Below, one piece after another: positions 1,285 to 51,045 of a stretch of 64,000 nt of DNA. Position numbers and translations under genes: made by a program. The notes below the pieces were generated by a model, which saw only the letters and a list, made by a program, of their open reading frames with translations, did no database searches and was not told the origin of the DNA. Source of the DNA: Candidatus Latescibacterota bacterium (lineage in GTDB: Bacteria; Krumholzibacteriota; Krumholzibacteriia; WVZY01); NCBI GenBank assembly GCA_963791045.1, contig CAWBQK010000011.1, positions 64,001-128,000 of the forward strand, read 5' to 3'. Each line of letters starts with the position of its first letter. The stretch's first letter is position 1.

Positions 1285-1307
1285 ATCAGCCGAGTCATCA
1301 CGAAATG

Positions 1308-1338
1308 GAAAAGGCCGCCCCTTTAGGGCGGCCTTTTC
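1308..1338. terminator. Bidirectional rho-independent terminator
   Basis: gaaaaggccgccc-cttta-gggcggccttttc hairpin between convergent genes. Confidence 0.8.
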
Positions 1339-1414
1339 TGTGCTCGCTAACCCGGCACGGCTGCGTCCGTAGCAACGCCTGCGATCTGCCTTGGGCTCGC
1401 ACTACGCTGCGCTA

Positions 1415-1494
1415 GGGTCCTGTCATCGGTCACCCCGCGCGTGCTCACTATCGTTCCGCGCGCGACGGGGGCCCCACCAATGCCACCCGTGCCT
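1415..1494. repeat. Structured dispersed intergenic element, copy 1
   Basis: Blocks 1415-1450 and 1466-1494 match the reverse complements of 19379-19414 and 19236-19264. Confidence 0.8.
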
Positions 1495-1505
1495 ACGATA
1501 GGTCA

Positions 1506-26915: not shown

Positions 26916-27641
26916 ATGAAGAAAGCAGCGATTGTTTTTGCAGTTATGTTTGCGTTAACGTTGTTCGCCGGTGCGTCCTTCGCGGGGCCACCCTTGAACG
27001 GTGACTACGATTCAGATGATATCGGGGGCCCGACCAATGTTGGTCGGTACACTGAATCGTTTGTGGCTCCAAACGGATCTCTTCTTGCCGGAACCACATT
27101 GAACGCGGAATCGTGGGACGGCATGAATCTCGGTCTTCAGTGGCGGTACTATTGCTCCACTCAGTTTGTCGATCCAATTCTTCTCATTGACACCGTCAAC
27201 TCGAGCGGCAATGGGAATCGGACCTACCAGAAGACATTTGTCGGCGGTTACATCTGGTTGAGCGGCGCCGGGCCATGGGGCAACGGAGACGCCGAATACG
27301 CCGGACCGATCGATACGTACTACGAGTTCGAAACGATTCAGTACACGAACTGGGTGCGGACTCACGCCGTCACCAATATTCAGGCGACGGCGCATTTTGA
27401 CAACTACCCGACGACCTGTATGGTCTTCTCGGTTGGCAATGGTCTTGAAATCGGCAGCACCGATTTTGGTGACGTGAAGCCGGCGACCTATCCTGATTTG
27501 CTTCAGGAAGGAACATGCGCGCCGGTTATGACAATGGGTGGCTGGTGGGATTTCTTCACCCTCACCTTGTCGATCACCGATTGTACGGTTCCGACGCAGG
27601 ACACGACGTGGGGCGCAATCAAGTCGCTTTACACGGACTAG
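26916..27641 (+). CDS. Secreted protein with C-terminal TWGAIKSLY tail
   Basis: Sec signal MKKAAIV...ASFA, RBS aggagg, ends VPTQDTTWGAIKSLYTD. Confidence 0.9.
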   Translation: MKKAAIVFAVMFALTLFAGASFAGPPLNGDYDSDDIGGPTNVGRYTESFVAPNGSLLAGTTLNAESWDGMNLGLQWRYYCSTQFVDPILLIDTVNSSGNGNRTYQKTFVGGYIWLSGAGPWGNGDAEYAGPIDTYYEFETIQYTNWVRTHAVTNIQATAHFDNYPTTCMVFSVGNGLEIGSTDFGDVKPATYPDLLQEGTCAPVMTMGGWWDFFTLTLSITDCTVPTQDTTWGAIKSLYTD

Positions 27642-27700
27642 GGTAGATCGAGCTTCCGCGCCGCTGGTCCACCGTGCGGACCCTACGGCAACGGACGTTG

Positions 27701-27741
27701 AAAAAGAACCCGGCGGGCTGATCGCCCGTCGGGTTCTTTTT
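27701..27741. terminator. Rho-independent terminator
   Basis: aaaaagaacccggcgggc-tgatc-gcccgtcgggttcttttt. Confidence 0.85.
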
Positions 27742-27903
27742 GCCCCGTATTTCCATGACCAGAAGAGATGATCGAGCGCTCCCGCGACGCGGCCCGCCGG
27801 CGAGATTTCTGCATATCGGCGTAACCCGTTGCCGGTGTATTCGTATGTATTTTCAGAGGCTATACTGCGGCCGACGACCATGCCCGGTTTACAGGAGCTG
27901 CAA

Positions 27904-28815
27904 ATGCGTTCAAGAATATTCAGCTGGATTGTCTTCTCGACAATGATGTGTTGTCTGAATTCTCCGGCGGTCACAGAAGCGTGTTCGATTTTCTATCTCG
28001 CCCGCGGCGAGAAGGTTCTCGCCGGGCAGAATCAGGACGCCAATAATCCCAATTCGAAAATGTGGTTTATTCCCGCGTCGGAGGATCAGCACGGGCGTGT
28101 TTTGTTCGGTTTCGACAAGGAATACAAGATTGCCGAGAGCGGGATGAACGATCAGGGACTTTTTATCGGCGTGAATGCCCTCGACAGCGAAACGGGGTGG
28201 AAACCATCGCCGGACAAACCGGATTGGGAAGACTGGGAGGGTTGGTATGTCACGGGTGTTCCCGACGGCGTCCTCGCAAAGTGCGCGACGGTGGATGAAG
28301 CGGTGGCGATATTCGACACATATAATCTGCTGATGTTTGCAAAAGTGAAGTACCTGATCGGCGACAAGACGGGCAGGTCGGTCGTCCTCGAGTGGAGCGA
28401 GAACGGACTCCAGGTTGTTGAACGATCGGGGGATTATCAGATTTCCACCAATTTCGTGACATCGAATTTTGCGCGTGACGACTATCCGTGCGAGCGCTAT
28501 GAAATCGCCGATCGCATTTTTAGTAGTAGCGACGGCGAAGCGTCGATCGATCTGATCAGATCGGTATTGTCGGCGACGTGCTTTGAATACTTTATGTTTA
28601 CGCCGACATTGTACTCGGTTCTTTACAATATCGAGAACGGACGCTTCTACTTGAGTTTCTTTCACAATTTTGAGGAAATTATAGAGTTTGACCTCGGCGC
28701 AGAACTCGAGAAAGGCGCCGCGCGCTACCGGCTCCACGACCTGTTTTCGCAGCATTCATACGCATATGGTCTCTATTTGAAGAAAGCGGGAAAGCTCGAC
28801 CCCGCCCCTCAGTAA
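27904..28815 (+). CDS. Secreted Ntn hydrolase (choloylglycine hydrolase / C45-like)
   Basis: Signal peptide, then N-terminal nucleophile Cys (A|CSIF...GQNQD), GMNDQGL, STNF, TLYS..Y. Confidence 0.85.
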   Translation: MRSRIFSWIVFSTMMCCLNSPAVTEACSIFYLARGEKVLAGQNQDANNPNSKMWFIPASEDQHGRVLFGFDKEYKIAESGMNDQGLFIGVNALDSETGWKPSPDKPDWEDWEGWYVTGVPDGVLAKCATVDEAVAIFDTYNLLMFAKVKYLIGDKTGRSVVLEWSENGLQVVERSGDYQISTNFVTSNFARDDYPCERYEIADRIFSSSDGEASIDLIRSVLSATCFEYFMFTPTLYSVLYNIENGRFYLSFFHNFEEIIEFDLGAELEKGAARYRLHDLFSQHSYAYGLYLKKAGKLDPAPQ

Positions 28816-28958
28816 GGGCGCCCCGGCACTCCACTGTGAAAATTCGAAACATCCGCGGCTCCGGTCTTGTCCTACTGGACAACGGGCAATCCCGCGCCCA
28901 GTAATAGTGTGGTGCGGGTCCTGTCGTCCTCTCAATGTGACGTGCAAGGAGAAGAATA

Positions 28959-30176
28959 ATGCGGACATTCATAATCACGGTCGTGCTACTGGTTGCCATG
29001 GTTTCCACGTTGTACGGTGGCGAAAGTGCCACTGTCGAGCAGCGAATCAAGGCTGTTGAGAACGGGCTCATCGAATTCACGGCTCCGGCGAACATGCTCG
29101 CGCCCGCCGCGGACGGCGCCGGCACTCACGCGTTGGCGGAGAGAATGGCGCATTACAAGATCCCCGGTGTGAGTATTGCGGTCATTAACGATTTCAAGAT
29201 CGAGTGGGCAAAGGGATACGGCGTGACCTGGGTCGGTGAGGGGACGCCCGTGACAACCGGGACGCTATTCGAGGCCGCGTCGACAAGCAAGCTCGTTGTC
29301 TCCGCCATTACACTTCACTATGTCGAGAATGGACTTCTCGATCTCGATGAAGACGTAAACAAGAAGCTCAAATCGTGGAAAATCCCCGAAAATGATTTCA
29401 CCAAAAAAGAAAAGGTGACGCTTCGGCGGCTTCTGACCCACCAGGCTGGGCTCAACCGGCCCGATGGCGGGTTTTCGTGGGAAGAGGGACGCATGCCCAC
29501 ACTCGTTCAGACGCTTAGCGGCGAGGCGCCCGCGGAAAATGATCCCGCGGTTGTTGAGGTGGCTCCGGGCACGGAGTGGCGGTACTCGAACCTTGGGTAT
29601 ATCGTCATTCAACAGCTTCTCGAAGATGTGACCGGCCAGCCGTTTGCCGACATTGCGCGTGACGTGATTTTTGAGCCGCTCGGGATGACATCGAGCACGT
29701 TCAAAGTTCCTCTCGATGCGGGCGCGAAGCGGAAGAAAGCCTTGCCCCATGACCCCGAAGGATCCGCGCACGACCCCGAGATGCATGTCAACGCCGTCGC
29801 CAATGGCGGCCTGATCACGACACCCACCGATCTGGCCATCTTCACCAACGAACTGATTCTCGCCTGGCACGGGAGATCCGACCGAATACTGTCGCAAAAG
29901 ACCGCCCGCGCGATGTTCGCCAGTGAACTTGATATCGACCCGGTGGTTCTCGGTGTACCTCTGAAAGAGGGCCTTGGCGTGCTGCTCTTCGGAGACGGCG
30001 CCGCCCGGGTGTTCCTCCATCCCGGCGACAATGCCCCCGGAACGAGCAGCTGGCTCATGGGCTACCCCGAGACGGGCAACGGGATTATTGTCATGGCGAA
30101 CGGCGCAATGGGAAACCTCCTCGCGATGGAGATTGTCGCTGCCGTCATCACCACATACGCCTGGCCGGTTGATTAG
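28959..30176 (+). CDS. Serine hydrolase, beta-lactamase/AmpC-like family
   Basis: SxxK (ASTSK), LLTHQAG, YSN.GY, HPG; signal peptide. Confidence 0.92.
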   Translation: MRTFIITVVLLVAMVSTLYGGESATVEQRIKAVENGLIEFTAPANMLAPAADGAGTHALAERMAHYKIPGVSIAVINDFKIEWAKGYGVTWVGEGTPVTTGTLFEAASTSKLVVSAITLHYVENGLLDLDEDVNKKLKSWKIPENDFTKKEKVTLRRLLTHQAGLNRPDGGFSWEEGRMPTLVQTLSGEAPAENDPAVVEVAPGTEWRYSNLGYIVIQQLLEDVTGQPFADIARDVIFEPLGMTSSTFKVPLDAGAKRKKALPHDPEGSAHDPEMHVNAVANGGLITTPTDLAIFTNELILAWHGRSDRILSQKTARAMFASELDIDPVVLGVPLKEGLGVLLFGDGAARVFLHPGDNAPGTSSWLMGYPETGNGIIVMANGAMGNLLAMEIVAAVITTYAWPVD

Positions 30177-30484
30177 TGTCTGTTTAGGCGGAAAAACCAC
30201 GACATAGTTGATCAGCCCGGCGAAGGTTGATCCCACTCCCCTGTTTCTGCTAAAATGCGCCGTAGCTGGTGTTTCTCGCTATCCATATGCAAATATTTGT
30301 CGGCATTTCTGAAGTGTTCGGCCGATCGACCCGGACGACATCTTGCTATCGCGCGATCAGTTGCCCGTGACGCAATCGCAGGAGTTGGCTGTCACGGTTT
30401 GTTACCCACGCGAAATCAAACCGAAAAACAACCACTACCGAACACGTGTTCGGTAAAAACTCAATATCGGATTCGGAGGATCAC

Positions 30485-32254
30485 ATGAAACGATTCTCGA
30501 GCCCCGCGGGACTGCACGTGGGAATTCTGGTCTTTATGCTGGTGGCCCTGGCTGGGGTTGTTTGTTCACCGCTTGCCCAGGAGACGGCCGCACCCACCGA
30601 GGGTCAGGACCTCCTCACGGAAGTTCCCACCGACTCGCTTGGGAAGGACGCGGCAAAACTGGTCGAAAGTATCAAGCGGGCCATTGATATCGGTGATGAA
30701 GTTCAACGGAAGCTGGCCACGGCAAATTACGAGGACAGTTTGGTTTTTCGGCTCCGACTGTCGAATTTGACGATCCAGGTCATGGATGACGTTCACAAGC
30801 TGGCCGACGTTTTAATCGCGATGGAGGAGAAGGGGCCCCAGGACGAACTCAGGGCCGAGGTCGTTGAGTTGTACCGATTCGCCACGCCGAGAATCTGGCG
30901 GTACATTGACGTTCTCCGACACGAAATCGATGAGAACCGGGGGAGGAGGCATTCGACAACGGGAGCGGCGCGTCTTGCCGTCGAAGACCGGGTCGAGCTG
31001 CTCACGGATCGCCTCAACCAGGGATTCGAGATCGGACATGTTCACATCGAAAAGATGAACGAGCTCGGGCTGGACACTGCTCGGGCAACCAGTGAATTCA
31101 AAGCCGTTCTGATCGATCGGTCGCACGAGTTATCCGGTCGGATCGATCTTGCGATCGAACGGGTCGATGAACTGACCTCTCGTGTAGAGGATGCGCCGGA
31201 CGATGGAGATCTTCGCATTGAGCTCATTGCGGCGCACACGAGTCTGGACATCAACACCTCAAGCATGACGGTTGTTCTCGGTATCATGGATGCGTTCACA
31301 CTTCCGACGGCGGTTTACCGTGCCCAGTTGGTGTCGGCCACGCGCGATCTCGCGACGGGCCTGCTCGACAAGGATGTCGCGGCCGGGCTGGTGGGCCAGG
31401 CCGTGACGAGGGTCAAGGACTGGCTCGTCGATAGCGGTCCCGGATATCTCGTCAAGTTGCTGCTGGTTTTCGCGATCCTCTTTGTTTTCAGAGTCCTCGC
31501 GAGACTCGTGCGCACCGGCGTCGATCGGGCGATCGATGCGTCCAAGCTGAATGTATCGATGCTGCTCAGGCGAATGATCCTCTCGTCGGTCTCGAACGCC
31601 GTTTTTCTCCTCGGCTTGCTCATAGCTCTCTCGCAGGTCGGTTTCACGCTGGGGCCGCTTCTCGCCGGGCTCGGTGTCGCCGGTTTTATTGTGGGCTTTG
31701 CGCTCCAGGACACGTTGGGTAATTTCGCAGCCGGCATGATGATCCTGATCTATCGCCCGTACGACGTTGGTGATATGGTCGAGGTCGGCGGCGTTTTTGG
31801 AAAGGTCGATCAGATGAGTCTCGTCTCGACCACGATTCTGACGATTGACAACCAGACGATAGTCATTCCCAACAACAAGATCTGGGGCGACGTGATAAAG
31901 AACGTCACCGCCCAGGCCGTCCGCCGCGTCGACATGGTGTTTGGCATCTCGTACCACGATGACATCCAGAAAACCGAAGGGATTCTCGAGGACATTCTCC
32001 AGAAGCATGAAAAGGTTCTCGACGATCCCAAGCCCGTTGTCAAGCTGCACACCCTCGGCGAGTCCTCGGTCGATTTCGTCGTCCGGCCGTGGGTCGCCGT
32101 GGGAGATTATTGGGAAGTGTACTGGGACGTGACGCGGTCGGTGAAGATGCGCTTTGATGAGGAGGGTATATCGATTCCTTTCCCACAAAGGGACGTTCAT
32201 ATATACGAAGAACAGATTGCAAACAGACAGGAGGTCGAGCGGAGCGATGATTAG
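30485..32254 (+). CDS. MscS-family mechanosensitive channel with large periplasmic N-terminal domain
   Basis: LLAGLGVAGFIVGFALQDTLGNFAAG, RPYDVGD, IPNNKIWG, ISIPFPQRD. Confidence 0.93.
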   Translation: MKRFSSPAGLHVGILVFMLVALAGVVCSPLAQETAAPTEGQDLLTEVPTDSLGKDAAKLVESIKRAIDIGDEVQRKLATANYEDSLVFRLRLSNLTIQVMDDVHKLADVLIAMEEKGPQDELRAEVVELYRFATPRIWRYIDVLRHEIDENRGRRHSTTGAARLAVEDRVELLTDRLNQGFEIGHVHIEKMNELGLDTARATSEFKAVLIDRSHELSGRIDLAIERVDELTSRVEDAPDDGDLRIELIAAHTSLDINTSSMTVVLGIMDAFTLPTAVYRAQLVSATRDLATGLLDKDVAAGLVGQAVTRVKDWLVDSGPGYLVKLLLVFAILFVFRVLARLVRTGVDRAIDASKLNVSMLLRRMILSSVSNAVFLLGLLIALSQVGFTLGPLLAGLGVAGFIVGFALQDTLGNFAAGMMILIYRPYDVGDMVEVGGVFGKVDQMSLVSTTILTIDNQTIVIPNNKIWGDVIKNVTAQAVRRVDMVFGISYHDDIQKTEGILEDILQKHEKVLDDPKPVVKLHTLGESSVDFVVRPWVAVGDYWEVYWDVTRSVKMRFDEEGISIPFPQRDVHIYEEQIANRQEVERSDD

Positions 32255-33353
32255 AAATCGAAGAACAGTCCCGATCGGAGTGCTTTTGTTTGTCGTCAGC
32301 CTTGTCGTTTTGTCGGGGTTCGCTCCCACCGCGACCGCCGAGACCTGGCAGCCCCCCGAGCCAAATGCCGAAGAGAGAGACTGGCTCAAGATGAAATCGG
32401 GTGAGTGGTTGTGGGGAGATCTAAAAAGTCTCAGAGATAAGGACCTTGAATTCGACAGCGAAGAATTCGACCTGCAAAAACTGGACTGGGGCGATGTAAC
32501 CGAGTTTCGGTCCGCGCGCATCCTCACTTACCGATTTGAGGATACCGGGGTGTATACCGGGACGGCGGTAGTCAAAGATGGTATCGTCAAAATTCAGACC
32601 GGTACGGGCTTGCAGGAGCTTCCCCGAGAAGACCTCATCATGATTCTCGAGGGAGCGCAGAGAGAGATCGACTTCTGGTCGGCGAAGATGACGCTTGGAT
32701 TTGTCGGGCGGAGCGGCAACTCGGACCAGACGGATTTCAACACAGCGATCAAGATACGGCGCCAGTCACCGAAAGCCCGCTGGGACAACAAGTACGTCGG
32801 GAACTTCGGAGAAGTCAGTGGGGAAGAGAACATCAACAATCACGATTTCTCGTCGGCGTTGGACATGCTCCTCCGGGCGGGATTCTTTGTGACGCCGGGG
32901 GCTCTGAATCTGTTTCATGACAGATTCCAGAATATCGATTTGAGGACGACGATTGCAGCCGGTATGGGTTACTTTATCATGCGCGGCGGCGACATCGACT
33001 GGTCTGTCGGATTGGGCGCCGGGTATGTGAACACAAAATTCGGGTCGGTTCAGGAAGGAGAGTCGGATACCGATGACACTTTCGCGATGATCCCGACGAC
33101 CGGTGTCGAGTGGGATATTACCGGCGACATCGAATTCGACTTCAACTACAGGCTGCAATTGGCCGTTCCCGAGACGAGAAACTCGTTCCATCACGCGGGG
33201 GGAACGTTATCATTCGATATCTGGGGTGACATTCTCGACCTTGATTTATCGCTTACATGGGACCGTGTGGAGAGCCCGAGAGCCGACGCGGACGGAAATG
33301 TGCCGCAGAGGGACGATTTCCGGAGTACGATCGGCATCGGAATAGATCTGTAG
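32247..33353 (+). CDS. DUF481 (YdiY-like) outer-membrane beta-barrel protein
   Basis: Signal peptide; D.L.MKSGE.L.G N-domain; RSGNS.Q.D; DRFQNI; amphipathic strands. Confidence 0.8.
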   Translation: MIRNRRTVPIGVLLFVVSLVVLSGFAPTATAETWQPPEPNAEERDWLKMKSGEWLWGDLKSLRDKDLEFDSEEFDLQKLDWGDVTEFRSARILTYRFEDTGVYTGTAVVKDGIVKIQTGTGLQELPREDLIMILEGAQREIDFWSAKMTLGFVGRSGNSDQTDFNTAIKIRRQSPKARWDNKYVGNFGEVSGEENINNHDFSSALDMLLRAGFFVTPGALNLFHDRFQNIDLRTTIAAGMGYFIMRGGDIDWSVGLGAGYVNTKFGSVQEGESDTDDTFAMIPTTGVEWDITGDIEFDFNYRLQLAVPETRNSFHHAGGTLSFDIWGDILDLDLSLTWDRVESPRADADGNVPQRDDFRSTIGIGIDL

Positions 33354-33381
33354 CCTTCCTCTACAAAAGGAGCGAATCGCC

Positions 33382-34494
33382 GTGGAAAATTCAAAGGGGT
33401 CTCCCGGAAACCAGGACTACCTGGCGAAATCCCTCAACATCGCGGTCCACCTGTCGATAGTCGCAATCATCCTCTTCAGCAGTTTGAAGATTATCAGTCC
33501 GTTCTTGATGCCGGTCTTGTGGGGGGTATTGATTGCCGTCGCGCTTCACCCGCTTTTTGAAAAGATGAAGTCGGGGCTCGGCGGCAAGAGCAAACTGGCC
33601 GGTGCGATATTCATAGTGGTGGGCTTGCTGTTGTTGATCGCGCCCACGGTGTGGCTCGCCGATTCGCTTGTCGGCGGCGCGCGTGAGATCGGTGGACAAT
33701 TAGAACAGGGCACCTTAAAGGTTCCGCCACCGGACGCCTCGGTCAAGGAATGGCCTGTAATCGGGGAGTCGGTTTACCAAACCTGGACCGATGCTTCGGT
33801 GAATCTTGAAGGTACAGCGACAAAGCTCGCCCCTCAACTCAAAGCACTCGGCACGCGATTAGCGGGATTTGTTGCCGGCATAGGAGCGGCGTTCATTCAA
33901 AGCTTGTTTGCGATCGTAATCGCCGGAATATTACTCATCAATTCTACGGGGGCGGGAAGAACGGCGCGGGCGATTGGCCGCACTCTGGCGGGGGAGACGG
34001 GCGTCGGGCTGGTGAACATATCAACCGCGACCATTCGCAGCGTGGTGAAGGGAGTGCTTCTTGTCTCTGTGATTCAATCGCTTCTTGCCGCGGTCGGGCT
34101 TGTAATTGCCGGTGTGCCGGCCGCCGGCCTATGGTCCCTTCTGGTTTTGATTGTGGCAATCATGCAGCTGCCGCCGGTCTTGATTCTCGGTCCGATTGCC
34201 GTCTGGGTGTTTTCTTCGAATGACAGCACGGTTATCGCGGTTTTCTTTTTGATCTACAGTTTGGTTGTCAGCGGGGCCGACGGTCCTCTCAAAGCGGTAC
34301 TTCTCGGACGCGGGGTTCAGATCCCAATGGTAGTCATCCTCATCGGCGCGATCGGGGGAATGCTCGGCGCGGGGATCATAGGATTGTTCGTCGGCGCGGT
34401 GATCCTTTCGATTGGCTATCAGCTCGTCACGGAGTGGATCGATTATGCTTCCGAGAAGACTGAAGAAGACTCTCCGGATACAACGAGCGCTTAA
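33382..34494 (+). CDS. AI-2E family transporter (YdiK-like)
   Basis: PF..PVLWG..IAVAL.P, LK.VLLGRG...PM.VILIGAIGG....GIIGLFVG. Confidence 0.9.
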   Translation: MENSKGSPGNQDYLAKSLNIAVHLSIVAIILFSSLKIISPFLMPVLWGVLIAVALHPLFEKMKSGLGGKSKLAGAIFIVVGLLLLIAPTVWLADSLVGGAREIGGQLEQGTLKVPPPDASVKEWPVIGESVYQTWTDASVNLEGTATKLAPQLKALGTRLAGFVAGIGAAFIQSLFAIVIAGILLINSTGAGRTARAIGRTLAGETGVGLVNISTATIRSVVKGVLLVSVIQSLLAAVGLVIAGVPAAGLWSLLVLIVAIMQLPPVLILGPIAVWVFSSNDSTVIAVFFLIYSLVVSGADGPLKAVLLGRGVQIPMVVILIGAIGGMLGAGIIGLFVGAVILSIGYQLVTEWIDYASEKTEEDSPDTTSA

Positions 34495-34519
34495 TTCAAC
34501 TATGTATCAGGAGTGAGAC

Positions 34520-35665
34520 ATGTCAGACGACAGGAATGCGCAAGAACAGCCGTCGCCCGCGTCCGATTCCGTCAGCGCCGGCGACACGGCCACACCTAAA
34601 AAGGACCCGATCCGACGGATCACCGGGATCGTTCTCGGCGTGTGTCTCGTTATATTGACCTGGTACATAACGGCGGATCGACTTGCCCCGTACACCGATC
34701 AGGCGAAGATCGTCGGGCTCGTCGTCCCGGTGGTGCCCAGGGTTTCCGGGTATTTGACCGATGTCAATGTTCGGCTTCACAGCGTGGTCGACGAGAACGA
34801 CGTCCTTTTTCAGATCGACAAACGACCGTTCGAACTGGCCGTGAAAAACGCCGAGGCGAACTTCGACCGCGCCGCGCAGCAGGTGGGCGCCCGTACGGCG
34901 ACCGTAAAATCCGCCATGGCAAGCGTTGGGGTCGCACGGGCTCAACTCGACCGCGCCCAGCGTAACTTCGATCGAACGCAGCAGGTTCTCGAAAACAATC
35001 CCGGGGCATTGTCGCAGGCGGATCGCGACCGTTCCGAAACTGGGCTGGCACAGGCGGTGGAACGGGTGGCGTCGGCGGAAGCCAATCTCGAAAAGGCACA
35101 GGAACAGTTGGGTGCGGTTGGCCCGGACAACCCCGATCTTCGGGCCGCGATGGTGGCGCTCGAGCAGGCTCAGCTCGATCTTGCTTTCACTACGCTGTAC
35201 GCGCCGTCCCGCGGAGTGATTGAGAGTTTTAACGTCGATGTGGGCCACTACGCCGCGGCGGGACAGCCGCTTGCCACATTCATCACGATCCACGATGTGT
35301 GGATCCAGGCGGACATGCGCGAGAACAACATCGCGAACATAAAACCCGGTGCGCGCGCGGAGTTTGTTCTCGACGTCGCGCCCGGACGTGTCTTCAGCGG
35401 AACCGTTAGAAGCGTGGGGTTTGGCGTTGGATCACAGGGAGGAACGTCACGCGGTGAGCTCCAGACCGTTTCGAGTTCGCAGGGGTGGCTTCGGGACCCG
35501 CAGAGATTCCCCGTGATCATAGAGATCGAACCGGGCGAAGCCGCGGGTCTGCTGCGCGTGGGAGGACAGGCCGACGTTATTGTCTATACGGGAAACCATC
35601 ATATTTTGAACGCCATCGGTTGGGTGAATCTCCGGATAAGGGGGCTCCTGTCATATGTCCGTTAG
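34520..35665 (+). CDS. HlyD family membrane fusion protein
   Basis: PYT.QA, V.PRVSG, LFQID..PF, coiled coil, L.APS.G, QRFPV. Confidence 0.92.
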   Translation: MSDDRNAQEQPSPASDSVSAGDTATPKKDPIRRITGIVLGVCLVILTWYITADRLAPYTDQAKIVGLVVPVVPRVSGYLTDVNVRLHSVVDENDVLFQIDKRPFELAVKNAEANFDRAAQQVGARTATVKSAMASVGVARAQLDRAQRNFDRTQQVLENNPGALSQADRDRSETGLAQAVERVASAEANLEKAQEQLGAVGPDNPDLRAAMVALEQAQLDLAFTTLYAPSRGVIESFNVDVGHYAAAGQPLATFITIHDVWIQADMRENNIANIKPGARAEFVLDVAPGRVFSGTVRSVGFGVGSQGGTSRGELQTVSSSQGWLRDPQRFPVIIEIEPGEAAGLLRVGGQADVIVYTGNHHILNAIGWVNLRIRGLLSYVR

Positions 35666-39950: not shown

Positions 39951-39965
39951 CTGAAGGAGTTTCGT

Positions 39966-42900: not shown

Positions 42901-43051
42901 CCGCGGCGGCGTGCTGACCGGCTTATTCGATCTGATGCACGTAATGGGTTCATCCGATTGGGTTGACGACGAGGCTCAGCTCGATCATTACATGGGGTCG
43001 TACGGGTGGTTTACGCGTCACATATCGCGCTGGGCGACACCTTTACAGTAG
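39966..43051 (+). CDS. Large secreted phospholipase D superfamily protein with N-terminal beta-rich domain; ~1027 aa, two frameshifts
   Basis: ORFs 39966-40901, 40609-41259 and 40898-43051 join at ~40691 and ~41243. HRKISFYD (HxKxxxxD), HMK, GSQNMDYR...DGE. Confidence 0.75.
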
Positions 43052-43144
43052 GTTTGGGTTCAAACAGGAGAGTTTGCGCATTCGGAAAATACCGTGTTTA
43101 GTGTTTTTGTGTCGAAACCCGTATCGGATAAACTCAAAATCATC

Positions 43145-44491
43145 ATGAGCCAAATTTCCCTTAGATCGTTGTTTGTGCACGTTGTGTGCACGCTCCTTCT
43201 GTGCGGTTCAGCCGCCGCGCAGGATTCCCACTACTGGTCCGAGAAGTACGGCACCCGCTCGGAACTGCTCGGGGGCGCCGTTGTCGGGAGTCCGCAGGAT
43301 CTCAGCACGACGTTCTACAATCCCGGCGGCCTTACTCGCCTCGAAACGCCATCCTTTCTTATTAGCGCGCAAGCATTCGAGTACCAGTGGCTCGATGTCG
43401 AAGATCCAACCGGCAATTTTGAGGATTTGTGGACGGACAGGTTTGGAGTGGCGCCGACTCTTTTTGCCGGTACTTTCCCGAGGGACTGGGTGTCGGGGAC
43501 GCTCGCCTATTCGGTGCTTACGCGGCAGAAGTCAGAATTCCGGATCGACAGCTGGGGGAACGGGGCCGATCTGGACTCGGACGGTGAGACCGTTATCGCC
43601 AATATGCTGATCGACACGAAGTCGACGGAAACCTGGGGTGGGCTGACGTGGGGGGGAGATGTCGGGGCGGTTGGAATCGGCGCCTCGTTGTATGGAGCCT
43701 TGCGAAACCAGCGGGGGCGTTTCGAGTATCTGTACCAACCGATGCCAACCGGGGCGCCCGGGCTGGTTCTGGCCTCGGTCGATGACTACAGTTACTGGCA
43801 TGTTCGCATGCTCGCGAAGGCGGGCGCTTATTGGCAGCGGGATCGCCTGAGTCTTGGGATCACGCTTACCACACCCGGACTTCCTCTTTTTGGCAGCGGC
43901 GATGCGGCTTACTATCGAAGTCTCGTTTTCACCGATTCGACAGGCGTGCCGGAGATCACCGAAGGCGGCGCGCCGGACGACGTCTCAGTAACGTATCGTT
44001 CACCCTCGTCAATCGCGATCGGGACGCGTTACGGGAAGCCAGGGAACGCGGTCTACGTCACAATCGAGTGGTTCCACTCCGTGGATCCTTATCAGGTTCT
44101 GTCTACGCCCGACGCGCCGGAATCAGGTCTAGGGTCGACTCTCCGCTCCAGGACCACACAGGAGTCGGCGTCCGTGGTCAACGTCGCGATCGGGTATGAA
44201 TACTCTCCTCGCAACCGGCTTACTTTTTTTGGAAGCTTTCTGACGAACTTCACAAGTGCGGTTGATAACCGTGCCGCGTCGCATTCGGTTTCCACATGGG
44301 ACATTTACCAGTTTACGATAGGAACCGCGTTCAAGGCGGCTTCTGTTGATTTTACGCTGGGGGGATCGTTTGCGTTTGGGAACGACGAGATTACGCGGTT
44401 GACCGATATTCCGGAAATGCCACTTTTTGATATCTCGCAGGTCCGTTACCGGAAACTCAAGGTGTTCATAGGGTTTGAGTTTGGGAGCTGA
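43145..44491 (+). CDS. Outer-membrane beta-barrel, FadL/TodX-like
   Basis: Signal peptide; G.RS..LGGAV.....D....FYNP.GL; C-terminal FIGFEF. Confidence 0.75.
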   Translation: MSQISLRSLFVHVVCTLLLCGSAAAQDSHYWSEKYGTRSELLGGAVVGSPQDLSTTFYNPGGLTRLETPSFLISAQAFEYQWLDVEDPTGNFEDLWTDRFGVAPTLFAGTFPRDWVSGTLAYSVLTRQKSEFRIDSWGNGADLDSDGETVIANMLIDTKSTETWGGLTWGGDVGAVGIGASLYGALRNQRGRFEYLYQPMPTGAPGLVLASVDDYSYWHVRMLAKAGAYWQRDRLSLGITLTTPGLPLFGSGDAAYYRSLVFTDSTGVPEITEGGAPDDVSVTYRSPSSIAIGTRYGKPGNAVYVTIEWFHSVDPYQVLSTPDAPESGLGSTLRSRTTQESASVVNVAIGYEYSPRNRLTFFGSFLTNFTSAVDNRAASHSVSTWDIYQFTIGTAFKAASVDFTLGGSFAFGNDEITRLTDIPEMPLFDISQVRYRKLKVFIGFEFGS

Positions 44492-44537
44492 GCGGCGTGT
44501 CAAATAGAATCCGGCCGGGAATCATAAGGGACAAAGA

Positions 44538-44960
44538 ATGAGCATGAATCTGGAAACAACCGTTGATGAAGGTTTTCTTCGTGTCCACGTGACCGGAGAA
44601 TTTGTCTTCGAGGAAGCGAACGATTGTTTAGTCACCGTTTTCGAGGCCATCGAGCAGCACAAACTTCAAAGAGTTCTGGTGGACTGCCGGCAGCTCTCTG
44701 GAGAACCAACGACAATCGAGCGCTTTTTCCACGCGACATTTGCCGTTCGCGAGATGGACAGATTCGCCGACAAAGGCGTCTTCCGCGGAACTCGATTTTC
44801 GTACCTCGGTCACGAGCCGTTGATTGACCGAAATCATTTTGGCGCAACCGTCGCCACCAACAGAGGCCTCATCGTGAAGGTATCCATGAACGAACAGGAT
44901 GCCTTGCAGTGGCTCAAAGCAGAATCAGTCGACGAAACTGCCCAGGACGATTCGAACTGA
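44538..44960 (+). CDS. Hypothetical protein, STAS/SpoIIAA-like fold
   Basis: L.V..TG.F, RVLVDCR.L, F...VA.NRG..V, EQDALQWL. Confidence 0.7.
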   Translation: MSMNLETTVDEGFLRVHVTGEFVFEEANDCLVTVFEAIEQHKLQRVLVDCRQLSGEPTTIERFFHATFAVREMDRFADKGVFRGTRFSYLGHEPLIDRNHFGATVATNRGLIVKVSMNEQDALQWLKAESVDETAQDDSN

Positions 44961-45013
44961 TTCCATCCCGAGCAGCTTGCTGATGAACATTCGAGCCGTT
45001 CGAACGAGCCGGT

Positions 45014-45703
45014 TTACTCGCTGTCTTTACCAATAAACCGGTATACCACCGCGCCAAGAACGCCGCCGACGATCGGCGCCACCCAGAACAACCACAACTG
45101 AGCAACGGCCCATCCGCCGACAAAAACGGCGACACCGGTGCTCCGTGCCGGGTTCACGGACGTGTTCGTCACCGGGATGCTGATCAAATGGATGAGAGTG
45201 AGGCAAAGACCGATCGCGATGGGCGCGAACCCCTGTGGAGCGCGTTTATCCGTCGCGCCGAGAATGACAACAAGGAACATCATCGTCATGACGACTTCTG
45301 TGACGAGCGCCGCGAGCAGCGAGTAGCCGCCCGGCGAGTGCTCGCCGTATCCGTTCGAAGCGAAGCCCGCCGACACATCGAAGCCGGCCGTGCCGCTCGC
45401 TATGATAAAGAGGACTCCCCCCGCGGCGATCCCGCCAAGGACCTGTGAGACGATATACGGCGCGAGTTGACCGCCGGGAAAACGGCCGCCCGCCCAGAGC
45501 CCGATCGAGACCGCAGGGTTGAGGTGGCACCCCGAGATATGGCCGATGGCGAACGCCATGGTGAGAACGGTCAGACCGAACGCGAGGGCGACACCGAGCA
45601 GGCCAATCCCCACTTCGGGAAACGCCGCCGCCAGAACGGCGCTGCCGCAGCCGCCGAGCACGAGCCAGAATGTACCAAAGAACTCAGCCCCATACTTGTT
45701 CAT
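45014..45703 (-). CDS. aqpZ: Aquaporin Z
   Basis: [43 protein letters not shown] aggagg. Confidence 0.97.
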
Positions 45704-45861
45704 GGAAGCCTCCTGTTTAAAGTGGTGTTCACGGGGGAAGTTTTGCAGAGGCGCGGTCAGGACGTCAAGTTGAACAAATACGGAGCGGGAGAGCACGACG
45801 CCACAAGCTGTTATATAATAACACTATACGGTCCTTCTGCTGCGATCCAGGAGGTTTGCGG

Positions 45862-46125
45862 GTGAAGCTTCTATGTTGTTTTTTGATTATCGTTTCGTGC
45901 ATCGTCACGGCGGGGATTGTGTGTGCACAGCCTCATCAAATCGGGATATTCAATGATACGCGCGGCTGCCCGTGTGAAGTCACCGACTATGCTCCGGGGA
46001 TCATCACGATGTCCGTTCTCCATCTCCAATCCCCCGGCGCCAAGGCGGTGCGGTTTTCGGCGCCGAAACCCTACTGCTTCAACGCGATCTGGTTGACGGA
46101 CACAATAAAGTCTCTTTACGAGTAG
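45862..46125 (+). pseudogene. Internally deleted secreted protein of the TWG-tail type (or a mini-protein)
   Basis: RBS aggagg, signal peptide, IGIF.D..G..C...D..PG...FSAP.P.CF...WL.D, then directly IKSLYE*. Confidence 0.55.
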
Positions 46126-46167
46126 CCGCCGCCGCGATGGCCGGACCGAACATACCCTCTGCACGAT

Positions 46168-47539
46168 TTATTTGCCGTTCAACAAAATACTCCGTCCCCT
46201 CTCGACGACCACGTCGCGTCCGCTGTAGATGTCTTCCCGCGACGGATAAACTTCGACATCGGGCCTGATGCCGATTCCCGCAAAATCCCGCTTGTCCGGG
46301 AAGAGCGCTTCGAAGGTGGACACTGAAAACTGTCCGCCGCCCGGAAGCACGGAAACAAGCCCGTGTCCGGCGCCGCCGCACGTTTGAGTCCCCACTACCG
46401 TCACCCGTCCGGTCTGCTGAAGTTCAATGACGAGATCTTCCGCCGAACTATTGGTGCCCCCGTCAACGAGAAGAACCAGCGGCCCCAGGTATCTTTTGCC
46501 GTCGCGCGGGGCGACCGTGGAATGGTCGATCGGACCACTTGGGCTCATGCCCCCAGGCCTCTTCGGCTGCCGAGTAGTGGCGGTATCGCATCAACGGAGA
46601 ATCGACCATGCCTTCGATCAGGCAGCTCACGATTCCTTTTGTAACAGTGCTATTGCCGCCGAGGTTCGAACGGACGTCGATAATCATTCCTTTTATGGCG
46701 GCGGTATCGGTCGTGTCGATCAATGCCCTGAAATCCTCTTCGATCCGGGTGTGTTCGAAATTCGGGATCGACACGTAGAGGACGTCTCCATCCAGCATTC
46801 TGGCCTCGATGGTCTCGGCAAAGAGTTTTTCCACGAAACGGTACATGAACGGCGCCCCGCCGTTTGAGAAAGCGTTGCGCGTTAAGGTGACATCCCTGAC
46901 GTTTCCGTCAATCTCCCTGATCTGCAGATCGACTGTGTCGCCTGCGGGGCCGAACAAGAGGTAGACGGTGAGGATCGCTTCGTCTCCCTGCGGAGATCCC
47001 TGTGTGTGATACTTGAGTACGTTGTCATCAAAGTAATCACGCACGGGAATCCCCTCGCCGACTTCCAGTATCTCGAGGCCGGGGCGGATGTTCTGCGTTT
47101 CGATTTCATCGCCGGTGCCGACACGCGTGATGATAAAGCGACCGTCGAGGACATTTACCTCGATCGGCGGCAGATCGTATCCCGGTTTGAAGTGACCCCA
47201 GGGCGGAGTGATGCGTGTGTGCGAATCCTTGAGGAGCGCGACGAGTTCCTGAAGGACGAGATAATAGTCGTCCATGGTTTCGGCCGCGATGACGCGGGGG
47301 AGATACTGCTGAACGGTTGCGTCCCAGTCGAGATCTGGCCGTTTGTCGAAGTGGGGAAACGCGTACTTCGTCTCCGCCCATATCGTCATCAATCCCCACA
47401 CTTTTTGTTCGACCGTGCCCGTCCATTCTGCGCCGTCGCCCTTCGCGGGGTCCTCGGCAAATCCCGGCGAGGCAAAGCAGGTTGTCACGACAAGAAAAAT
47501 CAACAGAAACCGCAAGACATATCGACCGGTCGTGCTCAT
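46168..47539 (-). CDS. S41 family peptidase (frameshift near 46533)
   Basis: IIDVRSNLGG in ORF 46463-47539; LLVDG.T.SSAE and VVG..T.G in ORF 46168-46548; joined by removing one C. Confidence 0.88.
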
Positions 47540-47625
47540 GACTCTGACCCTTCCATTTCTATATGAATCTCAGTGGGTTCCTTAGCTGTAAGTTCTTCTT
47601 AGTCTCTACGAATCGGATGTGGTGA

Positions 47626-47655
47626 TGGTTGCGGCGTCCGGGCTCGAACCTGCGA
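47626..47655 (-). other. Degenerate tRNA 3'-end fragment (initiator tRNA-like), possible att remnant
   Basis: TCGCAGG-TTCGAGC-CCGGA-CGCCGCA-A-CCA has exact T-arm/acceptor/CCA spacing. Confidence 0.4.
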
Positions 47656-47726
47656 AAAGCCGGGGTGTCATGGAATCCAATTGTACTGGTTAACAGAATA
47701 ATATCACTCCCGCAGCGGGAGTTAAA

Positions 47727-47739
47727 AATCAACGACTTA
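47727..47739 (+). promoter_or_regulatory. IHF-consensus-like site
   Basis: AATCAA-CGAC-TTA matches WATCAANNNNTTR. Confidence 0.4.
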
Positions 47740-47927
47740 GTGCGGTCTCCGGCGATTCGCTCGAGACTGCACGAATTCGGTTATGGGTTTATCCAAAAAA
47801 TTGCGGTATTTTAGAAACGCAGAATGTAACTGCGGTCTGACGTTCGATGGGGGGCAAAGATGACTGGCGCGTACACGCGTTGGTTCCCCGCGTGGCAAAT
47901 CCATATCAATCTCAAAAGGAGACGCTC

Positions 47928-48650
47928 ATGGGTGTGACCAATAAGGAGTCTGGGACCCGTATCGATGAAGTCTCTGATGGAATCTACCGGATAAGTACGC
48001 CTTTCAGTGAACTCCCTGGAGGGTTCTCCTTCAACCAGTATCTGATCAAAGATGATCAGCCGTTACTCTTTCACACGGGACCAAGGCAAATTCACGCTTT
48101 GGTCAAGGAAGCGATTGCCAGTGTTCTTGATATCAAGGAGCTGCGGTTCATAGGGTTTTCTCACTATGAATCTGACGAGTGCGGATCGCTTAACGAATTC
48201 CTCGCCCTTGCTCCGGATGCGGCTCCGTTGTGTGGACAGATAAACGCGATGATCAATGGCGATCTGTTTGACAGGGGGGCGCATGTTCTCGCGAACGGTG
48301 AGATGCTTTCGCTTGGGAGTCATAACGTTCGCTGGTTCGACACGCCGCACCTGCCCCACGCATGGGAGTGTGGCTATCTCATGGAAGAGAAAACCAGAAC
48401 ACTTCTATGCGGCGATCTTTTTACTCAAGGCGGTGCGGACAATCCACCCGTGACGTCAAAGGACATCCTCGAGTCGAGCGAGGCTTTCCGGAAACAGATG
48501 GACTACTACTCGCACACAAAAAATATTCGTCCGCTAATGGCTGCCCTGTCGGCGGCCAAGCCAACGATCCTCGCTTGCATGCACGGCAGTGCCTGGGAGG
48601 GGGACGGTGAGACGCTACTCACCGAACTCGCCGATTCGTTGGATGCCTGA
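47928..48650 (+). CDS. Metallo-beta-lactamase fold protein (FprA/ODP-like di-iron domain)
   Basis: FSFNQYLI, LFHTG, SHYESDECGS, TPHLPH.W, CGDLF, MHG; RBS aaggag. Confidence 0.88.
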   Translation: MGVTNKESGTRIDEVSDGIYRISTPFSELPGGFSFNQYLIKDDQPLLFHTGPRQIHALVKEAIASVLDIKELRFIGFSHYESDECGSLNEFLALAPDAAPLCGQINAMINGDLFDRGAHVLANGEMLSLGSHNVRWFDTPHLPHAWECGYLMEEKTRTLLCGDLFTQGGADNPPVTSKDILESSEAFRKQMDYYSHTKNIRPLMAALSAAKPTILACMHGSAWEGDGETLLTELADSLDA

Positions 48651-48662
48651 GCCCGAAGCGGT

Positions 48663-48800
48663 CTATGCCCTGGTGGTGAAACACATGTTTGGCGCGCCCA
48701 TCACGCCGGCGTTTTCCATGGCTTCTTTTGGCCTGGCGCTATTGACGAACGCATTTGCCGCATCCATATCGGCGAATTCGTGATAAATCGTTACCTCATT
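48663..48800 (-). pseudogene. 3' remnant of a paralog of the 51694-51963 gene
   Basis: Translates NEVTIYHEFADMDAANAFVNSARPKEAMENAGVMGAPNMCFTTRA* versus NEVTLYHEFGSMDAAKAFVGSPRLKEVMESAGVTGAPDMWFTNKA; in-frame stop just upstream. Confidence 0.85.
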
Positions 48801-48892
48801 TGTATTGGATAGACACGTCTTTCATCGAACGGCTTCGAGACGCTTTCCTTGGAGATTCTAGCCAGGCGGAGTGATTTGATGCGGGGATCGCT

Positions 48893-49108
48893 CTAGTAAT
48901 CGTAATGGTATAAGACTTTCAACTCGCTACTGCTCAGTGAAACAATTTCCATTCGATAAGAAATTGTCCCACCCCAGTAGCCAACTTCTATTTCCAGCAT
49001 ACTCTCTGACAGCGTCGTCCATTCCCCCTCGTAATTCGCATACGTGATGGGCGGCGTTCCGCAAGGACCGGAGTTTTTTCGCTCGGTTTCGGTTTGCCTG
49101 GTTGCCAT
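48893..49108 (-). pseudogene. Probable C-terminal fragment of a lipocalin-like beta-barrel protein
   Basis: ERKNSGPCGTPPITYANYEGEW...YWGG...MEIVSLS..ELK looks like the 3' half of a longer protein; no signal peptide. Confidence 0.5.
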
Positions 49109-49154
49109 CCTTGTCGAAAGTTGAAGCGGATCACTATGGAGTGGCCGGGGAGCC

Positions 49155-49910
49155 TCACCGATAAAGTTGTTTGACACTGCCCCAGGTCCTGGTCTCGACG
49201 CCGACAACACAGTCATTCGGAATCGCGGAAGAAATAAAGGCGATCGTTTCGTTTGTGCCGCAGAACAACGATGTCACCTCGGTTATGGTCCCGTAGAGAA
49301 GAACCCGTGTCCCGGAGTTGATGTAGGGCGTGACATCCGGAGACGTGTCAGCGAAGAGAAGTTCAGGAAAACACTCCTGGTAACAATTCCACACCTCCTG
49401 TCTGTAACTCTGCCCGCAGCCGCCTGGTCCTCCGTACAAAGTACCGTGGCCCAGCAACGCGATACCGTGTGTTGCAGTGCCGAGATAGGCATCCTGGTTT
49501 TCGGGGATTGCGTTGCGATCCGCATCCACGGCCCGGGCGTGGTACATGTACCCATGATTTGGCGCCGCCGTAACATCCACGAGTTCGAACGATAAGTGCG
49601 GCCCGCCACCCGGATCATCCACCCAATTCCACGCCACGGGCTCATTCGTGATGCGTTCCCATGCCCCGCATTCGACGCCAATGTCGCTCCGGTACACATC
49701 GATCCCGGTCGGAGTTGCTGTCCACGCGTTAACGCTCCATGGGTTCCCGTCGAGCTGGATCTGCAAGTGCAACCCACCCGGTTCTACCGAACCGAGCAAT
49801 CGTCCGTCAAAGACGAAGTAGGCGGGATCGCTCTGTACGGATGTGGGGGAGAACAGAAACAAAAAGCAAAACAAAAGGGCAGAAAAGAACGTGGTCAGCA
49901 GGAACCGCAT
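49155..49910 (-). CDS. Secreted protein with C-terminal TWGSVKQLY tail
   Basis: Signal peptide, FnIII-like VYRS...W.RI....Y.Y.ARAVD, ends VGVETRTWGSVKQLYR. Confidence 0.88.
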   Translation of the reverse strand: MRFLLTTFFSALLFCFLFLFSPTSVQSDPAYFVFDGRLLGSVEPGGLHLQIQLDGNPWSVNAWTATPTGIDVYRSDIGVECGAWERITNEPVAWNWVDDPGGGPHLSFELVDVTAAPNHGYMYHARAVDADRNAIPENQDAYLGTATHGIALLGHGTLYGGPGGCGQSYRQEVWNCYQECFPELLFADTSPDVTPYINSGTRVLLYGTITEVTSLFCGTNETIAFISSAIPNDCVVGVETRTWGSVKQLYR

Positions 49911-50197
49911 AAAGCACCTTCTTTTTATTGCGCCAAGATAAGTACATCATGGGGAAACGACTCTGGGGATAATTATATCATATTTAAAGGGTTAAACGAA
50001 CAAAGACGTCATGCAGCCTTGTTGGCTTCGCGTTTCAATAATCGAGAACAAATCGCCCTCAAAGGAATTGTATTGGCTCTCCAGAGTAAGCGAATTTGGA
50101 ACTGGTCTTATCGGAGATGTTGCGCTATTGATTAGGGCAAAGAGTAAGATCGCAACATAATACAGATTCAGACGACAGAAATTGGAGTATAGAGATT

Positions 50198-50902
50198 ATG
50201 CGACGATTCGCCGTGACTTTGATTCTTGTCGTATGGGTTGGTTCAGCGGCCGCGAGTGACCTGACTTGTGTCATGCCTTTTTCGTTGGTTGATCGCTGGA
50301 CGGACGCCAACGGCAACGCGATGTACGATGATGGAGAAGCGTACGATCCATTGCTGACGGGTTTTGTCGCGCCCGCTGATGCGGGACTCTCCCTGACGCT
50401 CACGGCCTCGATTCCGCAACAGGCTCTTATCGCACAGGCCTATTTTCTGGTTGCGTTGCCCCCGCTTGGACAGGGAACTCCGCCGCAGACGGGTGAGACC
50501 TGGCTGCGCAGGTGGGTATCCGAGTGCGCTCCCTACGGTGTTTCGAGTGGGGACAGTTTGTTGATTGATCCCGGCAAGCTCTTTCCGGCGTTGCTCGAAG
50601 AGTTGAACGAGTTGATCGCGGCCGACCTGAACGCGTACTGGGATGACGAAACCAATACTGTCAAGGGCTCTGCGTTCAACGTAACGCCGCGACTGCTCGC
50701 CGTCTCATGCTTTGATCCGCGTTATCCACCGACATCCGGCGAGCAGTATGCCGTGGTGACGAAGATCGCCGTTGTGTTTCTGGAGTCGACCACGGGACCG
50801 ACGGCAGTGCGAGTTCGTTTTGTTGACAACGCAACCGAGACCGTGGCAACCAGACCCACCACCTGGGGTCGGATCAAGAGCAAGTATGGCGGGCGAGAAT
50901 AG
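50198..50902 (+). CDS. Secreted TadG-like domain protein with C-terminal TWGRIKSKY tail
   Basis: Signal peptide; PF...DRW.DANGN..YD.GE.YDP..TG, LIA.D.NAYWD, PR...V..FDP, VTKIA..F.E; ends VATRPTTWGRIKSKY. Confidence 0.8.
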   Translation: MRRFAVTLILVVWVGSAAASDLTCVMPFSLVDRWTDANGNAMYDDGEAYDPLLTGFVAPADAGLSLTLTASIPQQALIAQAYFLVALPPLGQGTPPQTGETWLRRWVSECAPYGVSSGDSLLIDPGKLFPALLEELNELIAADLNAYWDDETNTVKGSAFNVTPRLLAVSCFDPRYPPTSGEQYAVVTKIAVVFLESTTGPTAVRVRFVDNATETVATRPTTWGRIKSKYGGRE

Positions 50903-51045
50903 ACTTGCAGTGTCTCCCCGGTCTCCTTCATGAAGACACGCACCGCCGCCGGTTTGATCCTTTGCAGTCTTTGGTTCGGGATGTCGGCGCCGCGTCGGTT
51001 CTTGGAAAGCGTCTCGAACGTCTCAAAATGTCGGGGAGGTCGGTA

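Follow-up and report, generated by a model that had tools for sequence, protein, structure and literature searches.

A 64,000-nucleotide stretch from the genome of a Candidatus Latescibacterota bacterium (the window; contig CAWBQK010000011.1, which is contig C11 of the genome G000, positions 64001-128000) encodes exported proteins that end in the same short C-terminal tail, built around the motif W-G-x-[IV]-K-x-L-[YF]. We describe here this tail, the proteins that carry it and its possible reader. Three genes of the window end in the tail, and a fourth open reading frame (ORF) retains its last residues:

26916-27641, plus strand: P0001, 241 aa, exported, with a closed beta-barrel-like core; C-terminus VPTQDTTWGAIKSLYTD; tail at 27588-27638.

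49155-49910, minus strand: P0002, 251 aa, exported, of no known family; C-terminus VGVETRTWGSVKQLYR; tail at 49158-49205.

50198-50902, plus strand: P0003, 234 aa, exported; C-terminus VATRPTTWGRIKSKYGGRE; divergent tail TTWGRIKSKYGGRE at 50843-50899.

45856-46125, plus strand: remnant ORF with the C-terminus IKSLYE, joining the N-terminal half of a cohesin-like carrier of the family that we call family 1 to the last six residues of the tail.

Translation of P0001, P0002 and P0003 gave signal-peptide-like N-termini in each case, and once tails and signal peptides were removed no mutual match among the three was found by BLASTP. Pfam returned nothing meaningful for them, NCBIfam gave no match at E<=1 for P0001-P0004, and no usable match for P0003 was found in the ESM Atlas. 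Over 186 residues, the P0003 core shares 36% identity with the C-terminal part of a 376-aa paralog that has no tail (C18_116492). The remnant matches positions 5-79 of the 182-position family-1 profile (E 1.6e-23) and is probably an internally deleted family-1 gene. An earlier sequence-only reading of this DNA had pointed to three non-homologous proteins of the Sec type with a common C-terminal tail, and to a fourth remnant ending in IKSLYE. Both observations were reproduced: the three tails sit on mutually unmatched cores, and the remnant is traced to a family-1 carrier by its profile match.

The tail recurs throughout the 3.66 Mb, 21-contig genome. A six-frame scan for WG..K..[YFW] gave 67 matches, of which 52 lie within five residues of a stop codon; three matches without a plausible gene were discarded, leaving about 49 tail genes. 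A codon-level version of the pattern gave 49 matches, against 0 for the reversed control, and a chance origin of the tail is excluded. The motif is never followed by more than 26 residues, so no tail motif precedes a type IX secretion system (T9SS) C-terminal domain (CTD) in this genome. The predicted coexistence of the tag with FlgD_ig/T9SS-type CTDs, and their mutual exclusion on single proteins, therefore both hold here.

The overall consensus is C-x-T-V-P-[TV]-x-[ED]-[ST]-T-W-G-x-[IV]-K-x-L-[YF], followed by 1-4 residues and the stop. Counted from the Trp over the 49 tails, the upstream half has T at -8, V at -7 (36), P at -6 (37) and T or V at -5, then Q, K or E at -4, E or D at -3, T or S at -2 and T at -1 (42), and the helix half reads W and G (49/49 each), K or A, I or V, K (49/49), S, L and Y (44) or F. 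In the whole genome the aromatic position is occupied by 44 Y, 6 F and 1 H. Cys is enriched at -11 to -9 and is found between -16 and -4 in 35 of the 49 tails, while the closing 1-4 residues are mostly polar or acidic and mostly end in E or D. The sequence-only reading had likened the V-P-T opening to the EVPTGIED linker ahead of the CTD of a C25 peptidase. This likeness proved weak, as V-P-[TV] belongs to the consensus of the tag itself (see the counts for V and P above), and the recurrent pre-CTD motif of this genome, judged by eye, is instead [ST]-G-I-[GE]-D. The motif [PV]-T-G-I-[GE]-D stands 10-25 residues ahead of the CTD in about a dozen of the 46 CTD-type matches and may represent the region of cleavage or attachment by the T9SS sortase PorU in this lineage. 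No model of Pfam or NCBIfam matches the tail, and literature searches, made mainly on listings and abstracts, found no description of it.

The proteins that carry the tail are exported, small and diverse. Signal-peptide-like N-termini, called by a crude in-house heuristic, are present on 32 of the 39 called tail ORFs and on 1064 of 3450 other ORFs (Fisher p 7.6e-11), an enrichment for which the sequence-only reading had proposed a test; several of the seven tail ORFs without a predicted signal peptide are frameshifted fragments. Carrier lengths are mostly 180-300 aa, with a median of 224 aa compared with 793 aa for the T9SS-type CTD proteins (n=44) of the same genome. All-against-all BLASTP of 44 cores, with signal peptide and tail removed, gave 22 components, with 15, 5, 3, 2 and 2 members plus 17 singletons. 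Pfam domains were detected on 8 of 43 carriers, namely BACON, CHRD, right-handed beta-helix (4), CARDB and LTD, and no Pfam CTD matched any of the 43. One carrier of 623 aa (L013, C4:22801-24672) has two cohesin-like modules flanking three BACON domains, a scaffoldin-like layout, and its tail is followed by 10 residues, not 1-4.

Within families the tail is retained. The P0001 family (~240 aa, 55-84% identity over the 120 relatives listed) has the strict tail in 107 of these and point variants in the other 13. P0002 has, counting the query, 22 database relatives, each with the tail or a point variant of it at the C-terminus, and the tail is kept in 120 of the 120 family-1 relatives listed. Judged from these alignments, the tail is under strong purifying selection. 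Taken together, these results establish the tail as a genuine C-terminal tag of exported proteins that is modular and under strong selection.

AlphaFold2 (AF2) models of two unrelated carriers agree on where the tail lies. In P0001, modelled with 102 relatives (mean predicted local distance difference test score, pLDDT, 91), the beta-barrel-like core extends to residue 221 and is followed by a linker (222-231, block pLDDT 62) and a helix (232-239) that corresponds exactly to WGAIKSLY. In a family-1 carrier, modelled with 107 relatives (mean pLDDT 89), a beta-sandwich (24-160) is followed by a linker (161-172), in which the pLDDT drops to 67-58, and by a helix (173-181, pLDDT about 55). The linker and short helix are detached in two different folds, and therefore the tail is not part of a shared domain; the models also predict a short amphipathic helix behind a flexible linker, in keeping with the helix proposed from the letters. 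Foldseek found nothing in the PDB at E<=0.001 for the P0001 model, and its core aligned only with generic small barrels in VIA-align (best Z 8.6). A three-copy co-fold of the family-1 carrier (residues 21-183) gave a score of 0.00, which has no bearing either way on tail docking in trans.

The family-1 core has the cohesin fold. When it was compared with 48,161 chains by VIA-align, the best 20 rows were all cohesins (Z 12.6-8.1, 116-139 residues aligned, rmsd 2.5-4.8), consistent with their nine-stranded jelly-roll. By sequence, the family had no Pfam match, and a profile search against the PDB sequences retrieved no cohesin. Six family-1 genes form a tandem array (C3:91242-96375), flanked by two proteins with duplicated dockerin-type calcium-loop repeats, one of which matches Pfam Dockerin_1 with an E of 8e-4. 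In total, 15 cohesin-like genes versus 4 dockerin-like proteins were found in the genome. One further carrier, T36 (L030, C13:24555-25484), has a dockerin-like segment (residues 239-287) in addition to its cohesin-like core and tail.

Homologous cores in this genome bear different termini. The cohesin-like cores T05, T07, T08, T09 and T36 share 35-48% identity with C1_23372_24568, a protein with a T9SS CTD at its end, and other family-1 cores are 29-37% identical to the tail-less C13_117240, in which VFVGC is read as a lipoprotein-type signal. Similarly, the beta-helix carrier T52 matches three CTD proteins with 28-31% identity. Because homologous cores bear the tail, a T9SS CTD or a lipoprotein signal, the tail probably serves in sorting or anchoring, and this alternation is the classical pattern of interchangeable signals of that kind.

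Of the 208 genomes in the window's phylum, 206 have matches to the W-G tail pattern; the reversed controls gave counts close to 0. A scan of species genomes retrieved at least 120 loci, mostly labelled Eisenbacteria; other labels were Krumholzibacteriota, Latescibacterota, Gemmatimonadota, Fibrobacteraceae and Poribacteria, together with apparent chance matches in Proteobacteria and others. The motif lies within 5 aa of the stop in 113 of 125 occurrences from these loci, typically as LYR-stop, and within 7 aa in 29 of 30 occurrences from further genomes. The number of W-G tails per genome varies from 0 to 84 in a 151-genome sample of the Eisenbacteria phylum (at least one in 147 of the 151) and from 29 to 48 in three genomes that are Gemmatimonadota-labelled or related; a single tail is present in one Poribacteria genome. 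Genomes deposited as Fibrobacteraceae, Latescibacterota and Krumholzibacteriota (L085, L098 and L060; G105, G200 and G041) all belong to the single-class phylum of the window, and since their coordinates place them there these labels do not count as independent phyla. Protein names of the family-1 relatives refer to Latescibacterota and Krumholzibacteriia.

The genus g68, with 0-4 W-G tails per genome, was considered as a natural tail-less control and rejected, as it uses a W-[ST]...F variant. Its homologs of the P0001 family end in [ST]-W-S-x-[IV]-K-x-x-[FYH], and the W-[ST] pattern gave 12-41 matches per genome in the 4 g68 genomes searched, compared with 0-1 in controls; the general form of the variant is [ST]-W-[ST]-x-V-K-x-L-F. 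All 13 W-[ST] matches sampled (11 from g68 and 2 from genome G145) lie 1-2 residues from the stop. In none of the 168 occurrences of either form that were sampled outside G000 does the motif stand immediately ahead of a T9SS CTD. At the aromatic position, genome G109 has 26 F and 5 Y, counted by hand. Nearly all tails of g68 have thus changed form, and such a concerted switch across dozens of non-homologous genes argues for one reader common to the tails. Mixed genomes also exist (75 W-G and 19 W-[ST] tails in G145, 30 and 29 in G213), so this reader would tolerate both forms.

The window genome has T9SS parts of its own. A genuine PorU is encoded at C7:200398-203730 (554.7 bits against NF033707, cut-off 420) beside a PorV-like gene; SprA is present, and PorV-like paralogs account for 7 matches. 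Another C25 peptidase, here called PorU2, is encoded outside the window at C3:97431-100838, just downstream of the family-1 array, between the array and the second dockerin-type flanking protein. It has 1135 aa and its own FlgD_ig CTD, and residues 393-824 match peptidase family C25 (PF01364, 198 bits). The catalytic His and Cys columns are kept in 9 of 9 aligned C25 proteins, PorU2 included; its motifs QGHAN and G-[ML]-G-C-H are unlike those of PorU, and the region C3:97479-99488 scores 154 bits against the PorU model NF033707, below the cut-off of 420. For the PorU2 orthologs of Eisenbacteria and Gemmatimonadota-labelled genomes, the summed tblastn bits with PorU2 versus PorU were 365 v 164, 257 v 165, 277 v 135, 270 v 194 and 190 v 89. 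By these scores, the PorU2 orthologs of three phyla constitute a group distinct from PorU.

Of the 17 genomes for which both positions were available, 12 have a tail gene at most 8 kb from PorU2 (G000, G109, G114, G145, G212, G105, G220, G210, G213, G215, G239 and G256) and 5 do not (G214, G347, G226, G116 and G287). Weak PorU2 matches in tail-rich genomes were traced to divergence or scoring limits; the N-terminal part of an Eisenbacteria PorU2, used as query, closed the apparent gaps with one match in each of 9 genomes, that in G221 being weak and restricted to positions 280-371. In one genome with about 3 real tails, the PorU2 gene has in-frame TGA codons and is without the catalytic Cys stretch, possibly through an assembly error. 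Three g68 and two tail-rich genomes all have PorU-PorV, 4-7 PorV-like matches and at least 40 CTD-type matches. Among the neighbours of tail genes in G000 (221 ORFs) and at 120 foreign loci, only CTD proteins, sigma-54 activators and parts of ATP-binding cassette (ABC; MacB-like) or resistance-nodulation-division (RND) systems recur. The single large recurrent family among the 221 ORFs has 15 members, joined by their T9SS-type CTDs, and individual CTD queries match up to 25 of the 120 foreign tail loci.

Several other genes of the window adjoin the tail genes or lie in a cluster of the T9SS type. A gene with a TonB_C domain (50905-51654, plus strand) starts 3 nt past the P0003 stop, which suggests co-transcription. 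An S41 (tail-specific-type) peptidase gene (46171-47539, minus strand) adjoins the family-1 remnant and is split into the overlapping ORFs 46171-46548 and 46466-47539, being a frameshift or a pseudogene. At 43-6262 lies a cluster of T9SS-type cargo. It includes a FlgD_ig-CTD protein at 43-1281, a second one, which has FG-GAP repeats, at 1509-2723, another FG-GAP ORF at 2614-3891, and a C25 peptidase at 4114-5514 that is neither PorU nor PorU2 and is overlapped by the upstream ORF 5309-6262.

We favour, with a probability of roughly 0.6, the interpretation that the tail serves as a modular tag at the C-terminus, for sorting or for anchoring, and is read by a shared reader. The tag would consist of a flexible linker, C-x-T-V-P-[TV]-x-[ED]-[ST]-T, an amphipathic helix of 8-9 residues, W-G-x-[IV]-K-x-L-[YF], and 1-4 free residues. 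A carrier would be exported by Sec and then fold, and its exposed helix would be bound by one shared reader that directs or fastens it to the outer membrane or the cell surface, so that the tail does the job of a T9SS CTD or an N-terminal lipid on homologous cores. PorU2, although at odds well short of even, is the leading candidate for this reader or for a processing enzyme; it could provide a docking site for the helix, or cleave the linker and pass the protein on to an acceptor at the surface, in the manner of PorU with CTD cargo. A more far-reaching version, which we regard as rather doubtful, would make the tail the signal of a second sortase-like branch in which PorU2, as a dedicated C25 transpeptidase, recognises the 16 residues of linker and helix instead of a folded CTD. 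It would fasten some fifty proteins per cell to the surface, among them, as part of a diderm cohesin-dockerin system, the anchoring cohesins, and would do so in three or more little-known phyla. The sequence-only reading had also proposed an export or anchoring tag beside FlgD/T9SS-like CTDs; of this proposal, the discrete terminal tag on unrelated exported proteins of the Sec type stands, and the linker likeness does not.

However, several points weigh against this interpretation. The final location of the tail proteins, the identity of the reader and any cleavage are inferred, and the confidence of the helix is moderate to low (block pLDDT 82 and about 55 in the two models). Phylogenetic profiling, which had been proposed as a test, did not discriminate: PorU2 is almost universal in both phyla, being present in 205 of 208 genomes of the window's phylum and in 148 of 151 sampled Eisenbacteria, many of which have only 0-5 tails. 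The T9SS parts fared no better, being similar in the g68 and tail-rich genomes, and over these five genomes the presence of the T9SS tracks neither the type nor the number of tails. Only 6 of the about 49 tail genes of G000 lie beside PorU2, and two more beside another C25 gene. The 17-genome synteny sample is not random, draws in part on incomplete tail lists and includes several genomes from one phylum, which are not independent of each other. Those syntenic tail genes that were looked at are cohesin-like carriers, and the linkage may concern the cohesin-like family and not the tag. Finally, with its CTD PorU2 should act outside the outer membrane, which would leave the crossing of the tail proteins unexplained.

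Other explanations fit part of the same evidence. It is possible, at odds well short of even, that the tail is a retained, non-covalent docking helix whose receptor is not PorU2 but a PorV-like shuttle barrel, another outer-membrane protein or lipopolysaccharide (LPS), with no proteolysis involved. The linker and free helix modelled on two unrelated carriers are compatible with such docking, the near-invariance of the W, the K and the aromatic residue (W, G and K in all 49 tails of G000) fits a specific binding site, the several PorV-like paralogs could offer receptors, and most tail genes are not near PorU2. Yet the recurrent neighbours, namely CTD proteins, sigma-54 activators and MacB-like ABC parts, include no receptor, PorV-like counts are alike in genomes of both tail variants, and the acidic tail ends in the lineage disfavour plain LPS binding. 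Hitch-hiking of the carriers, in which the tail binds a CTD-bearing protein (PorU2 or another) in the periplasm and the folded complex leaves via the T9SS, would account for the small size of the carriers relative to the CTD proteins, their domain types typical of surface proteins, the lack of any CTD on them, the frequent proximity of tail genes to CTD genes and the CTD of PorU2. We nevertheless consider it unlikely: the density of CTD genes near tails is not clearly above background (21% seen versus ~13% expected by a rough estimate), no CTD-bearing protein with an obvious tail-binding module was found, and to our knowledge piggy-back export through the T9SS is not documented.

The extreme C-terminal position of the tail, and the presence of S41 peptidase genes, one of them the split gene beside the window remnant, would suit a tag for periplasmic retention, quality control or degradation that is read by an S41/Prc-type or PDZ protease. 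A PDZ reader binds its target by the terminal residues and their free carboxylate. The last 1-4 residues of the tail vary in length and chemistry, unlike PDZ targets. Its retention in essentially all members of conserved families is easier to reconcile with an address label than with a degron, and so is the way it alternates, on homologous cores, with signals for surface sorting, so that we judge such a role very improbable. The idea that the tail is simply the last structural element of one divergent fold common to all carriers could draw on their fairly uniform sizes and on the Cys that precedes the Trp by 4-16 residues in 35 of 49 carriers. Hardly any room is left for it, as it is already contradicted by the 22 BLAST components, by five unrelated Pfam domain types and by two AF2 cores that differ in fold, with the tail detached behind a low-confidence linker in both; a single folded domain common to the carriers was also what would have overturned the sequence-only reading.

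The interpretation of the tail as a sorting or anchoring tag can be set against known C-terminal signals. The T9SS type A CTD (TIGR04183 / PF18962, in its FlgD_ig-like form, processed by the sortase PorU) is likewise a C-terminal signal on Sec-exported proteins of bacteria of the Fibrobacteres-Chlorobi-Bacteroidetes (FCB) group, and the likeness extends to the CTD on homologs of tailed cores and to the PorU-like C25 peptidase linked to tailed genes. However, the CTD is a folded Ig-like domain (86 aa in G000), whereas the tail has about 16-18 aa and is predicted to be a linker and one short helix; the tail thus lacks the model-detected Ig-like beta-sandwich of 70-100 aa. Proteins with the CTD are large and those with the tail small, and the two signals never occur together in G000. 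The LPXTG/sortase, PEP-CTERM/exosortase, GlyGly-CTERM/rhombosortase and MYXO-CTERM/myxosortase systems similarly place a short C-terminal signature on dozens of unrelated exported proteins per genome, and in the tail, as in MYXO-CTERM, a Cys often lies just upstream. These signals combine a motif, a hydrophobic stretch and a basic cluster, whereas the tail has neither a transmembrane helix nor a basic cluster after the motif, only 1-4 residues, and has no NCBIfam match. In the beta-signal of outer-membrane beta-barrels, an aromatic residue at the very C-terminus closes an alternating last strand. In the tail 1-4 residues follow the aromatic, the hydrophobic spacing of W, I and L-Y is helical, and AF2 predicts a helix.

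The anchoring cohesins of cellulosomes include scaffoldins with a single cohesin and, at their end, a sortase signal or SLH (S-layer homology) domains. Family 1 likewise has the cohesin fold and lies beside dockerin-type repeat proteins, with the tail in the position of a cell-surface anchor; it differs in being without sequence similarity to them, in its diderm host and in the excess of cohesin-like (15) over dockerin-like (4) genes. Anchors formed by C-terminal amphipathic helices, together with docking peptides, include the membrane anchor of penicillin-binding proteins 5 and 6 (PBP5/6), the secretin S-domain with its pilotin and the cargo-loading peptides of encapsulins. In these too, a short helix or peptide at the terminus, set off by a flexible linker, brings a folded protein to a membrane or a partner; the helix of the tail is only 8-9 residues long, with about 50 carriers per genome and several phyla. 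The near-invariant W, K and aromatic residue of the tail suggest that it meets a specific protein partner and not a lipid.

From C-terminal sorting signals one can tell which proteins a cell displays on its surface and which machine takes them there. The alternation of the tail with the T9SS CTD and lipid anchors makes the question of its reader directly testable, with PorU2 as a concrete candidate, and a portable tag of 16 residues could serve surface display. In whole uncultured phyla, roughly 1-2% of the genes bear the tag. As it escapes every annotation model, the surface proteomes of these phyla are at present taken wrongly for 'hypothetical secreted proteins', and a profile of the tag would at once improve their annotation.

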